A DNA stretch of 64,000 nt, from NCBI GenBank assembly GCA_044226015.1, contig JBGAHS010000001.1, positions 128,001 through 192,000 on the forward strand, read 5' to 3'. This DNA comes from Candidatus Obscuribacteraceae bacterium (GTDB lineage Bacteria > Cyanobacteriota > Vampirovibrionia > Obscuribacterales > Obscuribacteraceae). The notes under the pieces are model-generated. The model saw only the letters and a list, made by a program, of their open reading frames with translations. It ran no database searches and was not told the origin of the DNA. Each line of letters starts with the position of its first letter. The first letter of the stretch is position 1. Made by a program: the position numbers and the translations under genes. Positions 41,057-46,357 of the stretch are shown in pieces.

Positions 41057-42490
41057 ATGCTTCTTAGCATTAGCACGACTCATCGTCCGGCTACGGACCT
41101 TGGATTTCTTCTACTAAAAAATCCAAACAATCTAAATAGTTTTGAACTCAGCTTTGGGAAGGCTCATGTTTTCTTTCCCGAGGCAAGTGACGAAATTTGT
41201 ACAGCTTGCCTTCTTCTTGATGTGGACAGCGTAACGCTGGTTCGCGGAAAGGGGCAGCAAGACGGAATTGAGCAATATGTGAATGACCGACCATATGTGG
41301 CGTCATCATTTATGAGTGTTGCGATAGCACAGGTCTTTGGTACCGCTCTTGGTGGCAGAACGAAACATAAGCCTGAGCTTGTGGATGTTCCTATTCCGCT
41401 TAAGGCCTCTATCAGTGCTCTGCCCTGTCGCGGGGGTGAGGCGCTATTAAAGAGCCTCTTTGAGCCGCTAGGTTACGAGATTTCGGCCCAGCGCTTGCCG
41501 CTCGACGAGAAGTTTCCTGAGTGGGGCGAGAGCCGCTACTATGCACTTGAACTTACTCAAACTCTGCCTTTGAAAGATCTGTTAAAACACCTGTATGTGC
41601 TTATTCCTGTTCTTGATGACGAGAAGCACTATTTTGTGGGTCAAGAAGAGGTTGATAAGCTTTTGCGTCATGGTGGCAGCTGGCTTGCAACTCACCCTGC
41701 AAAAGAGTTGATAAGCAAGCGCTATCTAAATCATAAATACAGTTTGGCGCAACTCGCCTTAAACCAGCTTGCTGAGCAAGGGGAAGACTGCTCTGAGGAA
41801 CAAGTTGAGCAGAACAATCAGGAAGAAGAAGTTGAAAAACCCTTGAGTCTAAATGAACAACGCATTCAAAGTATATTGAATTGCTTATTGGAGAATTCCG
41901 TGCGCAGCGTAATTGATATGGGCTGCGGGGAAGGGCGCTATCTAAAGGCTTTGCTCGAGCAAAAAGAATTCGACAAAGTTGCAGGAGTCGATGTGTCTCC
42001 TCGAGTGCTCGAACGCGCCGCAGACCGACTGCGCCTTGACCGCATGCCTGAACGGAAACGCGAGCGGCTTAATTTGTTTCAAGGCTCGTTAGTTTATAAG
42101 GATGATCGGCTTAGCGATTATGACGCAGCTATTTGCGTAGAGGTAATCGAGCACATGGACTTGCCGCGTTTACCCTCATTTGAAAAGATGCTGTTTCAAT
42201 ACAGTCGTCCGAAAATTGCGATAGTTACAACGCCGAATGTCGAATACAACGCAAAGTTTGAAACATTACCGGCTGGCAAAATGCGTCATGCTGACCATCG
42301 ATTTGAATGGACCCGCGCAGAATTCGAGTCGTGGGCAAGTCGAGTGGCGAGTACCTTTGGATATTCGGTTAGCTTTAATACGATCGGTCCGGTTGACGAG
42401 CTTTTGGGGGCGCCCACGCAAATGGCGGTGTTCAAAATTTTGAGTGAGGAAGAGCTTCTTGAAGCAGTCTCAGAAAGGAGGGCAAAATGA
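41057..42490 (+). CDS. hen1: 3'-terminal RNA ribose 2'-O-methyltransferase Hen1
   Basis: Hen1-N (MLLSISTTHRPATDLGFLL, YVNDRPY) plus MTase domain (DMGCGEG, EVIEH, TTPNVEYN, RHADHRFEWTRAEF). Confidence 0.95.
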   Translation: MLLSISTTHRPATDLGFLLLKNPNNLNSFELSFGKAHVFFPEASDEICTACLLLDVDSVTLVRGKGQQDGIEQYVNDRPYVASSFMSVAIAQVFGTALGGRTKHKPELVDVPIPLKASISALPCRGGEALLKSLFEPLGYEISAQRLPLDEKFPEWGESRYYALELTQTLPLKDLLKHLYVLIPVLDDEKHYFVGQEEVDKLLRHGGSWLATHPAKELISKRYLNHKYSLAQLALNQLAEQGEDCSEEQVEQNNQEEEVEKPLSLNEQRIQSILNCLLENSVRSVIDMGCGEGRYLKALLEQKEFDKVAGVDVSPRVLERAADRLRLDRMPERKRERLNLFQGSLVYKDDRLSDYDAAICVEVIEHMDLPRLPSFEKMLFQYSRPKIAIVTTPNVEYNAKFETLPAGKMRHADHRFEWTRAEFESWASRVASTFGYSVSFNTIGPVDELLGAPTQMAVFKILSEEELLEAVSERRAK

Positions 42491-45048
42491 AAATTGAATT
42501 GCCAGAACTTTCACTGGTCGTTTTGATTGGCTGTTCTGGAAGCGGAAAGTCAACCTTTGGAAAGAAGCACTTCAAGGGCAGCGAAGTTGTTTCGTCTGAC
42601 TTTTGCAGATACATGGTGGCTGATGATGAGAACGATCAGTCTGCATCTCGACCTGCTTTTGAGTTGCTCCACTATATTGTGGGCAAGCGTCTCGATGCTG
42701 GCAGATTGACTGTTATTGACGCCACCAGTGTTCAAGCTGAAGACCGCAAGCAACTTATCGAGCTTGCAAAAGCGCACAATTGCCTGCCAATTGCCATTGT
42801 ATTCAATATTGACGAGGAAGTCTGTCAGCAGAGAAACTTACAACGTCCCGACAGAAATTTTGGACCGCATGTAATCAGGCGCCAAAATAAACTGCTGCAG
42901 CGGTCTTTTAGAGGCATCAGAAAAGAAGGTTTCAATAGAACTTTCATTTTTAATTCGCCTGAGGAAGTTGAGCAGGCTGAGCTTGTACGGACTCCGCTCT
43001 GGAACAATAAAAAAACTGAGCACGGACCTTTCGATATCATCGGCGATATACACGGATGTTTCGATGAGACTATATTGTTGTTGGAGAAGTTGGGTTACAA
43101 GCTTAGCAACGATGAGTCAGACCCACTTCGGTATAATGCCAGTCATCCAGATGGTCGCTGCGTAGTTTTCGTCGGAGACCTGGTTGATAGAGGTCCGAAA
43201 ACGCCAGATGTGTTGCGTCTTGTGATGAATATGGTGAATACAGGAAACGCGCTATGCGTTGCTGGCAATCACGACGTGAAGTTGATGCGCAAGCTGTCTG
43301 GTAAGAACGTGAATATGACTCATGGATTGCTTGAGTCATGGCAGCAACTTGAGTCTGAAACTGATGAGTTCAAGTCTACTGCTTGTAAGTTTTTAGATGC
43401 GTTGATCAGTCACTATGTTTTCGATGATGGTAACCTGGTTGTTGCTCACGCCGGTCTAAAAGAAGCATTTCAGGGGCGCAGCTCAGGGCGAGTTCGTGAG
43501 TTTTGTCTTTATGGTGAAACCACAGGTGAAACTGACGAATATGGTTTGCCTGTTCGATATAACTGGGCAGCCGATTATCGTGGACGGGCAATAGTTGTTT
43601 ATGGACACACTCCTGTTCCCAGTGCGGCTTGGGTGAATAATACAATTTGCCTCGACACTGGTTGCGTATTTGGTGGCGAGCTGACGGCGCTGCGCTACCC
43701 TGAAAGAGAATTGGTTTCGGTTCCTGCGGCTCGCATGTATTATGAGCCAATGCGCCCTCTGGCTCATGTCGAGTCAGGTCCGCACGGCTACCGTACAGAA
43801 GATGATATGCTCAGCATCAATGATGTTTGCGGCAAAAAAATCATAAACACGCGCTTACAAAAATCGGTTACAGTGCGCGAGCAAAATGCTGCCGCTGCGC
43901 TTGAAGTGATGAGCCGATTTGCCATTAACCCGCGTTGGTTAGTCTATCTGCCTCCAACAATGTCTCCCTGCGGCACATCAAAGGTGCCCGGTTTTCTAGA
44001 GCGTCCCGAGGAAGCCCTAGATTACTACGTGCAGATGGGACAGAGTCGCATTATCTGTGAAGAGAAGCATATGGGTTCTCGCGCAATAGTAGTTGTATGC
44101 AAGGACGAAGCCAGCGCCCAAAAACGATTTGGAGTCGCTGATGAGGGCATTGGTGTTTGTTATACACGAACGGGTCGGCAATTCTTTTCTGATGAGAAGC
44201 TCGCTCAGCAGTTTCTCACTAGAATTCGCGACGCTGCCAATGAGTCGGGCTTTTGGGAAGAGTTTCAGACCGATTGGATGCTTCTTGATTGTGAGCTGAT
44301 GCCCTGGTCAATGAAAGCCCAAGAGCTGATTCGCAGGCAATACGCTTCGACTGGTGCAGCTGCTAGCAGGTCAATGATTGACGCTCAATCAGCCTTAGCA
44401 AAGGCTGGCAGCCGTGGCGTGCAGTTGGCAGACTTGCAAGATTCTTTCCGTGCGCGAACCGCTATGGTCGAGAAGTATGTGAATGCTTATAGAAGGTATT
44501 GCTGGAATGTGGATTCGCTCAGCGATGTGAAACTTGCACCGTTCCATCTTTTAGCGACCGAGGGTGTCGCGCATACGGACAAACCGCACATATGGCACCT
44601 TTCAGCTATCGCGAAATTGGCGCGTGCGGAGGGGGAGGAGATGATTATCTCGACGCCGTTTCGCGAAATTGATCTTTTGTCCTCAGACTCTGTAATTGAG
44701 GTTATTCGCTGGTGGGAGGGGCTCACCGCTGGTGGTGGCGAGGGTATGGTTGTAAAACCCTATGAATTTGTTGCGCATGGTCCGAAAGGTTATTTGCAGC
44801 CTGCCGTAAAGTGTCGTGGTAGCGAGTACTTGCGCATAATTTATGGTCCCGAATACGATGATGAAAGGTATCTAGAGCGCTTGCGCCATCGCGGGTTGTC
44901 TACAAAGAGATCTCTTGCGATGCGAGAGTTCTCGCTGGGTGTGGAAGCTGTTGAGCGGTTCGTTTTGCGAGAGCCTTTGTATCGCGTACATGAGTGTGTG
45001 TTTGCAGTTCTTGCAATGGAAAGCGAGCCCGTCGACCCGCGTTTGTAG
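42487..45048 (+). CDS. pnkp: Bacterial polynucleotide kinase-phosphatase-ligase Pnkp
   Basis: Kinase GCSGSGKST; phosphoesterase IGDIHG/GDLVDRG/GNHD; ligase EEKHMGSR, EGMVVKP and EPVDPRL; ATGA-coupled to hen1. Confidence 0.95.
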   Translation: MKIELPELSLVVLIGCSGSGKSTFGKKHFKGSEVVSSDFCRYMVADDENDQSASRPAFELLHYIVGKRLDAGRLTVIDATSVQAEDRKQLIELAKAHNCLPIAIVFNIDEEVCQQRNLQRPDRNFGPHVIRRQNKLLQRSFRGIRKEGFNRTFIFNSPEEVEQAELVRTPLWNNKKTEHGPFDIIGDIHGCFDETILLLEKLGYKLSNDESDPLRYNASHPDGRCVVFVGDLVDRGPKTPDVLRLVMNMVNTGNALCVAGNHDVKLMRKLSGKNVNMTHGLLESWQQLESETDEFKSTACKFLDALISHYVFDDGNLVVAHAGLKEAFQGRSSGRVREFCLYGETTGETDEYGLPVRYNWAADYRGRAIVVYGHTPVPSAAWVNNTICLDTGCVFGGELTALRYPERELVSVPAARMYYEPMRPLAHVESGPHGYRTEDDMLSINDVCGKKIINTRLQKSVTVREQNAAAALEVMSRFAINPRWLVYLPPTMSPCGTSKVPGFLERPEEALDYYVQMGQSRIICEEKHMGSRAIVVVCKDEASAQKRFGVADEGIGVCYTRTGRQFFSDEKLAQQFLTRIRDAANESGFWEEFQTDWMLLDCELMPWSMKAQELIRRQYASTGAAASRSMIDAQSALAKAGSRGVQLADLQDSFRARTAMVEKYVNAYRRYCWNVDSLSDVKLAPFHLLATEGVAHTDKPHIWHLSAIAKLARAEGEEMIISTPFREIDLLSSDSVIEVIRWWEGLTAGGGEGMVVKPYEFVAHGPKGYLQPAVKCRGSEYLRIIYGPEYDDERYLERLRHRGLSTKRSLAMREFSLGVEAVERFVLREPLYRVHECVFAVLAMESEPVDPRL

Positions 45049-45125
45049 GGCGCGAAGATATTTTTGAAAACTGCAACGGTACCGGTGGAGTTCTCTGGTT
45101 TTTCTGGTTTTTCTGCTTTTTCAAA

Positions 45126-46085
45126 TCACCACGCGCGCTGGCGAAGCTGCGGGGAATGTGGGTCGGTAACCGGAATGGCTGTCTGCCATCCAATGCCATT
45201 CATGTGTCCGAGGCGGACGTGATCATGATGGCTCAGCCTCTGTGGGCGATAGCTGCCGATGACGGACTTCACTGCATTCTCGAGTTCATACTTGCTTGCG
45301 CCAGGTCCAAGTTGCACCCTGGCTGTGGCTTCTGTGCCAAATAGATTAGGTTCCACAAAAACGTAACCAGAGGAGATATTCGCGCCCCTAACCGTCTTCA
45401 AGTCGTTTGCGCTTGCGCTACTGTAGACCATTTTTCCGATGAATTGGTCTGACCAGGCCACTGGTGCCAGAGCCTGCGACAGGCGTTGCCGCTCTGCTTC
45501 TGTACGTCCCACCACTATTGCCAGTGGTCGTTTATCGCAAGCGGCGACGTCGATAGCCAATCGAAGCGTATCAACTGCGGGAAGTGCGTCTGGCTGAGCG
45601 CCTCTGCCAGCGCTAACATAATGTCTGGAAATATCGTTCATCGCCCGCGCCATGTCGGCCGAGTCGCGAAAAACGTGTATTGGGCTGCGTCCGCCCAATA
45701 GTATTGGTCTTGCCCATGGGTCAAGAATAGCGAATACAGTGTTCTCTAGCGGTGCATCAGGTCTCCATAATTGCTTCAAAACTTGGGCTTCGCTTTCGCT
45801 TTCATACGTCATCATCCGCACGCAGACGAAGTTTCTGGAAGCATTTATCACATCAGTTTGCGTCAGGAACCTCCCGTCCGTGTCTTGCTTGCCTGGTCAC
45901 CACATGCCAGGTACGCCGCCGCATTGCGGTGCGGCTGCCATAAGTAGAATTGGTTTACCGGTTTTGGCTGCTTGTTCCTGGGCTTGCTTCCAGGTTGGAA
46001 TCCAGCCAATGCCCTCGCTCGCCTCTGCGGCTGAGCAGCAAAACAAGAACATGACACACAGGAACTGCAGGACTTTGACTCTCAT
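45126..46085 (-). CDS. Exported thioredoxin-fold protein with in-frame TGA (candidate selenoprotein, 319 aa)
   Basis: ORFs 45897-46085 and 45126-45851 are in the same frame, separated only by TGA at 45897-45899. Read-through gives IGW..W..A...A..TGKPILL...QCGGVPGMW-U-PGKQ...FLT..DVINASRNFVCVR, a thioredoxin_7-like pattern. Confidence 0.72.
45864..45876 (-). promoter_or_regulatory. Candidate bacterial SECIS hairpin
   Basis: CGGGA-GGU-UCCUG stem-loop at +21 to +33 after the UGA, with G at the first loop positions. Confidence 0.45.
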
Positions 46086-46357
46086 AGGTCGCCACCTCTG
46101 ATTACTTCTCTAACCAGTATAGGAATTCATTGTGGATTAAAAATGGAGGATTTGGTCGCCCAAAGTCGGCTTGAGCATTAAACCCGCTACGTAGTTTCCC
46201 ATTCAGTGCTAAACTATCAGACGCTGGGCGATCCCCAAGATGATGTAAAATTCAGCTTTTCGGGGAGATCCGCCGGGAACATTTTCGGTGGGAAGAACAC
46301 CATTGTATACAGTGCACTGTGCATTTAAGATTCAGCCATCAGTTAGAGATTCCCGCG

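Follow-up and report, generated by a model that had tools for sequence, protein, structure and literature searches.

Does the single TGA triplet inside a long minus-strand frame of an Obscuribacteraceae genome terminate a gene, or is it read as an amino acid? The frame runs from 46085 to 45126 of the window (the whole 64,000-nt stretch of DNA that was analyzed) and contains one internal stop only, the TGA of codon 63 (45897-45899), which comes after GVPGMW, eight residues past Cys55; the gene's own terminator is also TGA (45126-45128). The original prediction had described two open reading frames in one minus-strand frame with this single TGA between them, and had quoted the joined peptide with a cysteine at position 55; both descriptions are exact. 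The gene is present in a single copy in the genome. Standard gene calling recovers the C-terminal piece alone, and this piece is listed in databases as a protein, every database name seen being "hypothetical protein". The best explanation, which we consider quite probable, is one gene whose TGA is recoded as selenocysteine (Sec) and whose product would be an exported two-domain oxidoreductase carrying Sec63 and Cys55. Judging from sequence comparisons, Sec would almost certainly be incorporated at codon 63; redox chemistry between Cys55 and Sec63 is rather likely. The features of the locus are as follows.

45126..46085, minus strand: whole gene, 319 residues with the TGA of codon 63 read as Sec
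46094..46099, minus strand: purine-rich AGAGGT, 8 nt ahead of the ATG, a putative ribosome-binding site
46017..46085, minus strand: predicted signal peptide, residues 1 to about 23 (10-residue hydropathy 2.96)
45606..46016, minus strand: domain 1, thioredoxin fold of the Trx7/DsbH/DsbD-gamma type, residues about 24-160, with a weak match to Pfam Thioredoxin_7
45921..45923, minus strand: Cys55, likely redox partner of Sec63, a Cys in 45/45 full-length rows and 80/80 metagenome loci
45897..45899, minus strand: in-frame TGA, putative Sec63, directly ahead of the active-site helix
45861..45879, minus strand: SECIS-like hairpin inside the coding sequence, +18 to +36 past the TGA, with the loop AGGUU at 45872-45868
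45822..45824, minus strand: Cys88 of the FVCVR strand, invariant (146/146 rows) and common to the Trx7/PDZ selenoproteins
45741..45743, minus strand: Asn115 at the expected cis-Pro place, 145/146 rows
45246..45587, minus strand: domain 2, thioredoxin fold without CxxC, residues about 167-280
45162..45230, minus strand: conserved C-terminal segment H-x3-G-x3-G-x2-W-x3-IPVTD, not His-rich as a family

No sigma-70-like promoter was found for the gene. By a crude measure, leader hydropathy reaches 2.0 or more in 97 of the 119 loci with enough upstream sequence. The structure model built from a 146-row alignment, with Sec modelled as Cys, has a pLDDT of 95.6 and starts a helix at residue 64; a model from 23 rows, only 5 of which cover the N-terminus, leaves residues 53-69 below 50. 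The redox residue 63 is thus predicted to stand where the active-site helix starts, in the position of the thioredoxin nucleophile, in agreement with the earlier proposal that the TGA falls at the redox-Cys place of a thioredoxin fold. The second thioredoxin-like unit proposed at the same time is likewise supported by the model, in which both domains match thioredoxin folds. Domain 1 resembles DsbH, the DsbD gamma domain, AGR3, and similar folds (2ju5, 1vrs, 3f9u, 3ph9; Z 9.8-11.7), the closest being 3f9u (Z 11.7, rmsd 2.8, 121 aligned residues) and DsbH 2ju5 (Z 11.4, rmsd 2.9, 117 aligned), and domain 2 is matched by 9nce (Z 9.1, rmsd 2.6, 98 aligned). A sequence search of solved structures gave nothing below E 0.14, and the Trx7-type structures share 11-17% identity with domain 1 and lack Sec. 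An extracytoplasmic redox role is likely common to the DsbH/DsbD-gamma-type folds and the present family.

The DsbH, DsbD gamma, and AGR3-type folds have CxxC or CxxS and a cis-Pro. The active site of the present family reads C-x7-U-x2-K, and none of the CxxC, UxxC, or CxxU motifs occurs in it. Asn115 is presumably the cis-Pro equivalent, an assignment made by strand order and the T-x-x-x-L-D-P pattern. Domain 2 is likely non-catalytic, its one Cys (183) being found in 115/146 rows. Tandem thioredoxin domains of which one is active and the other lacks CxxC are also known from PDI, ERp44, and QSOX, the top Foldseek matches; whole-chain TM-scores against the PDI family are 0.26-0.29, so the domain arrangement differs and the analogy is one of architecture only. 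The His-rich tail noted earlier is local to this copy and not a family trait: residues 284-296 contain 4 His here, whereas 90 of 146 aligned rows have at most one, His289 being the only conserved one (130/146).

In the proposed mechanism, SelB bound to the hairpin just downstream would recode the TGA as Sec, and the hydrophobic leader, a signal peptide by hydropathy, would direct export. Sec63 would then attack the substrate, with Cys55 likely resolving the intermediate as a selenenyl-sulfide; Cys55 would take the place of the usual second cysteine, the +3 position being Lys. By analogy with the inactive domains of PDI, domain 2 may bind the substrate, and re-reduction would likely be provided by a DsbD-type membrane protein, two genes for which are present in the genome. 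A narrow substrate is more probable than a role in general disulfide shuffling, since the cis-Pro is missing and many surface residues are invariant.

A different reading, which we regard as unlikely and yet as the most serious competitor, also makes the protein a selenoprotein and lets Sec63 act alone, in a peroxidase- or deiodinase-like manner or as a metal or metalloid ligand, Cys55 being structural, e.g., paired with Cys88. It is consistent with the absence of a second Cys at +3 (Lys in 43/46 rows), with Asn at the cis-Pro position, with the otherwise unexplained invariance of Cys88, and with the seven-residue spacing, which is not among the motifs of the 119-family table in the 2026 catalogue (PMC13188914). 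However, both the exact spacing and Cys55 are kept in TGA and Cys forms of the family alike, Cys55 is placed by the model in the loop that links strand 1 to the active-site helix, and members of the nearest selenoprotein family, the Trx7/PDZ proteins of NF041199, also have a Cys upstream of Sec in that loop. These points speak against Sec63 acting alone.

The identity of codon 63 in relatives bears directly on recoding. Among 46 genome loci examined, 44 span this codon, which is TGA in 40 and TGC in 4 (36 and 4 distinct contexts, respectively). TGA with the seven-residue spacing was found in 29/29 parsed Planctomycetota loci (30 fetched), and TGA together with Cys55 in 80/80 metagenome loci (the best 80 of 331 matches, 65 of them distinct), a set biased by a seed pattern that does not fit the main Cys clade. 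Codon 63 in relatives is TGA or Cys and no other residue, never Trp, across the genome, metagenome, and Planctomycetota loci, as expected from the original prediction. Homologues without the interruption read C-x7-C-P-G-K; among the best 150 cluster representatives, four are full-length with C-x7-C and the remainder start past the codon.

The hairpin CGGGA-GGU-UCCUG described earlier at +21 to +33 is present in this genome, where it is convincing only as part of the family alignment. By itself, this copy folds at -5.7 kcal/mol (z 0.82; 163/200 shuffles as good), is among the weakest of the family, and misses the limit of -7.5 kcal/mol for the consensus given in the available part of the 2026 review (PMC13188914); 34 of 36 distinct TGA loci reach -7.5 kcal/mol in a 26-nt window, the published window and program being different. 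Since the single copy is no better than chance, the reality of the hairpin rests on the aligned family, in which a stem from +18 to +36 surrounds a loop AG(G/U)U(U/A). The seven pairs of +18..+24 with +30..+36 are formed in 96% of 252 cells across the 36 distinct TGA loci, vs. 29-53% in slid controls, and 23 stem cells are changed on both sides, with 0/500 shuffles as high; these values were obtained for a structure derived from the same sequences that were scored, and the related loci are not independent. The number of pairs with a double change (4/7) is not unusual, being matched by 133/500 shuffles. Many double changes alter amino acids (Arg/Leu to Gln/Trp, Met/Met). The loop codon +9 is only AGT or AGG (36/36), and 6 or 7 of the 7 pairs are kept in all 80 metagenome loci. 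In this genome, the stem is interrupted by an A-A mismatch at +20/+34 and left unpaired at +18/+36.

All four Cys loci have lost the hairpin, with folding energies of -2.0 to -4.4 kcal/mol vs. -5.6 to -13.6 kcal/mol for the TGA forms. The geometry of the hairpin (loop at +25 or +26, stem of 5-7 pairs) agrees with the SECIS description in the available part of the review, namely, a loop of 3-9 nt that has G in its first two places and lies 16-37 nt past the UGA, and a stem of 4-16 bp (PMC13188914). The loop AGGUU also follows the TGA of a SelW-like gene in this genome and of the Trx7/PDZ selenoprotein genes. A covariance model misses the four Cys loci and the SelW-like gene, which was not counted as proof, since the model also encodes coding sequence.

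The machinery for Sec is encoded in the host genome (92% complete), in which selA, selB, selD, and the tRNA-Sec gene selC all score over curated cut-offs, so that the proposed search for these four genes came out positive; the host SelD itself has Cys. Co-occurrence was assessed in 30 of 33 genomes, three having been dropped as sequence duplicates. Of the 26 genomes with the TGA form, 23 have selA, 23 have selB, and 25 have one or both, vs. none of the four Cys-form genomes, which are small, related MAGs and possibly incomplete. Exceptions with the TGA form include G136, in which no selA was detected, and G213, which yielded neither selA nor selB. In the survey of the host's class, selA was found in 10/11 full-length carriers. 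Four observations support Sec63: relatives have TGA or Cys at this codon, the hairpin covaries, the genome encodes the Sec machinery, and this machinery co-occurs with the TGA form. The codon comparison, the hairpin, and selABCD also favor what had been proposed at the outset, a protein that would be a Sec-containing thioredoxin-fold redox protein with unusual Cys-Sec spacing.

The same data make it very improbable that the TGA is a true stop in a conserved split gene, encoding a 62-residue peptide and a second protein restarted at a Met six codons on. Met does occupy the restart position in 106/132 rows, and the C-terminal piece stands in databases as a protein; yet 14 of 36 distinct TGA loci, including that of the window, have no ATG there, TAA or TAG is found at codon 63 in 0/149 TGA-bearing loci, and the Cys homologues are one chain. 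A split would also break up a thioredoxin domain, with the signal peptide remaining on the short fragment, and the hairpin and selA/selB track the TGA form.

No more credible is an altered genetic code, or a suppressor tRNA, under which TGA would mean Trp, Gly, or Cys. This reading could draw on release factor 2 (prfB), which was not found in this assembly, where RF1 and a short GGQ protein are the only ones seen, nor in 39/104 genomes of the host's taxonomic family, more than completeness suggests. Against it, TGA is an ordinary stop genome-wide: it terminates 582/2237 long frames, and the median number of open codons after the stop is 12 for TGA, 13 for TAA, and 14 for TAG. The sole tRNA with a TCA anticodon is tRNA-Sec. 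Since relatives with the TGA gene, e.g., G184 and G511, do have RF2, its absence from this assembly is likely a gap. Finally, a nonsense mutation or assembly error, for which only the weak hairpin of this copy could be adduced, is refuted by TGA in all 32 full-length copies of the host's family (the window's included) and by independent contigs, those of runs X2, X4, and X5 (three separate studies) and of X3 (a possible source sample) covering the codon without difference, with neither TGG nor TGC at 45897-45899 and with 16, 1, 0, and 1 differences elsewhere in X2, X4, X5, and X3, respectively.

Two further selenoproteins of known type were identified in the genome. The SelW-like CxxU protein (L069:1727-2077, minus strand; G000:C1:283726-284076) scores over the cut-off of TIGR02174 and has a strong hairpin (loop AGGUU, -12.6 kcal/mol). 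The second (L079:1609-2463, plus strand; G000:C8 near 209217) combines a signal-like leader, TPR, and a thioredoxin domain with WUGPC and is, by its sequence, a Sec-thioredoxin fused to a TPR domain. In addition, a small exported helical protein (L071:1768-2265, plus strand; G000:C5:194767-195264), with no family match over cut-off, ends in Gly-Gly-Gly-Cys-TGA-His-stop, the TGA having a hairpin with the loop AGGUC. No Sec-type FdhA was found in the genome, and no internal stop in 12 AhpC/TSA matches. Genome-wide hairpin scans are noisy and only family-confirmed matches were kept, so this selenoproteome is a lower bound.

The present protein stays below the cut-off of every NCBIfam (June 2026) and Pfam family, and the nearest three atlas clusters are "hypothetical protein". 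The closest known system is the Trx7/PDZ family NF041199, whose N-terminal Trx7 domain is homologous (profile match 96.7%, E 3e-10, 64 columns). It also has the FVCVR strand, a TGA equally far upstream of the helix Asp, and a hairpin that begins at +19 with a loop AGGU(U/G) like that of the present family, and it co-occurs with the latter in the same Planctomycetota genomes. The two differ in that NF041199 combines C-x2-U-x2-C with PDZ-type domains, whereas the present family has C-x7-U-x2-K, a loop 8 residues longer, and a second thioredoxin domain; the NF041199 profile gives 15.9 bits against a cut-off of 300, and 14/146 rows match it weakly (best E 2.4e-4). The profile alignment sets Cys55, not Sec63, opposite the Trx7/PDZ Sec: counted from strand 1, also in comparison with AGR3, Cys55 is the first redox residue, and counted from the helix it is Sec63. 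One Trx7/PDZ selenoprotein gene (L169) carries two TGA codons, giving U-x2-U where its relatives have C-x2-U. The VPGUxxT families NF041382 and NF041383 are also thioredoxin-fold selenoproteins with VPG shortly before Sec, whereas the present motif is VPGxWUPGK, with two extra residues between VPG and Sec and Lys at +3; compared by motif and profile score only, they match 7/146 rows weakly (best E 8e-4).

The protein family is large, with at least 131 clusters at 50% identity reaching E 1e-30 or better. In an even draw of 301 Planctomycetota genomes, the phylum of G215 (whose record title says Planctomycetaceae), it was found in 37 (~12%), and all 43 matches contain a TGA. In the host's own taxonomic family, 37/104 genomes match, and 32 (~30%) have full copies, all with TGA; the family was not found in 153 other genomes of the host's class or in 300 other genomes of its phylum. 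Found mainly in Planctomycetota and patchy in the host's own family, it is not an invention of the host's lineage. The closest named relatives of the window's protein are Obscuribacterales/Melainabacteria records (61-64% identity), among which it groups in trees, so that the lineage named in the original prediction is probably correct. Many Obscuribacterales copies (L025, L026, L036, L038-L043, L047), the window's not included, bear a Gly/Pro-rich extension ending in a motif like Q-x-Y/H-I/V-R-E-Y-R, a possible sorting or binding signal.

Seven of the Cys rows group in a single clade (100/100), and two others lie on long branches elsewhere, outside the second tree, which kept 53 of 146 rows and was rooted at the midpoint only. 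Both the sister rows of this clade and the rows branching next outside them are truncated and start with MDRSFLS, the peptide encoded by the hairpin. Because a metagenome scan for these sister rows found nothing, we infer their TGA from the truncation and the MDRSFLS start, which make a Sec-to-Cys reversion likely. The Obscuribacterales copies are one clade, including one row whose record title names Proteobacteria, inside a wider radiation in which the rows with names belong to Planctomycetota; transfer of the gene into a Sec-competent host is a guess from a tree without a root.

The use of Sec in the host lineage is broad: selA was found in 39/47 genomes of the host's family and 4/4 in two small related families, vs. 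0/149 in the eight remaining families of the class. Elsewhere in the phylum, selA is present in 23/300 genomes, in five families; psbA is absent in the one genome tested for each of them, and none of the five (G231, G241, G255, G277, G323) has the present protein family. Among the genomes examined, Sec machinery is confined to apparently non-photosynthetic branches of the phylum. The available part of a 2006 survey (PMC1794560) reports no Sec trait in Cyanobacteria, so Sec machinery and selenoproteins are placed here inside a phylum where that survey had none, and PMC5029168, in its available part, names Cyanobacteria only for orphan SelD.

A thioredoxin-fold family with this Cys-to-Sec spacing is apparently undescribed. 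Planctomycetes and Cyanobacteria are not mentioned in the available part of PMC13188914; the accessible genome list of PMC13326102 includes Vampirovibrionia rows and no Obscuribacter or Melainabacteria; and the family is not described in the available parts of PMC2398784, bioRxiv 2022.07.06.499078, or the other literature searched, a bounded result, since Haft and Tolstoy 2025, Deng et al. 2026, or supplements could hold it. Searches for the motif returned unrelated papers only, and "selenocysteine" occurs in none of the 18 listed papers that have three or more host-lineage terms. Thioredoxin-fold selenoproteins are the commonest kind known, so the novelty is one of family and motif and not of recoding mechanism. 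We lean slightly toward a broader picture, in which these are undescribed, widespread, and almost wholly selenium-dependent envelope oxidoreductases with a new Cys-x7-Sec site without cis-Pro, concealed by every annotation in the form of two fragments; Sec would be ancestral, with Cys arising by reversion after loss of the Sec machinery, and Sec use would be common in non-photosynthetic relatives of cyanobacteria. The family would add a large member to the prokaryotic selenoproteome, and its active site, unlike the motifs in the 2026 catalogue, offers a test of how much lengthening the thioredoxin loop tolerates. It also runs against two statements in the accessible text of that review, that Cys homologues usually outnumber Sec forms by far and that the Sec-to-Cys change is rare in bacteria (PMC13188914).

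Gene neighbors indicate no substrate, none being shared beyond close kin among 34 loci; the adjoining Hen1-Pnkp operon and PepSY-TM gene were therefore rejected as parts of the system. No fusions were found among proteins of 878-2505 residues, a weak result, as lengths of 560-878 lie outside the search. The Hen1-Pnkp RNA repair operon (window 41057-45048, plus strand) is convergent on the gene. Just past the gene lies a dispersed repeat (window 45047-45106) with 101 blastn matches across the genome, some of them arranged in tandem at periods close to 51 and 69 nt, and with very high contig depth in run X2.
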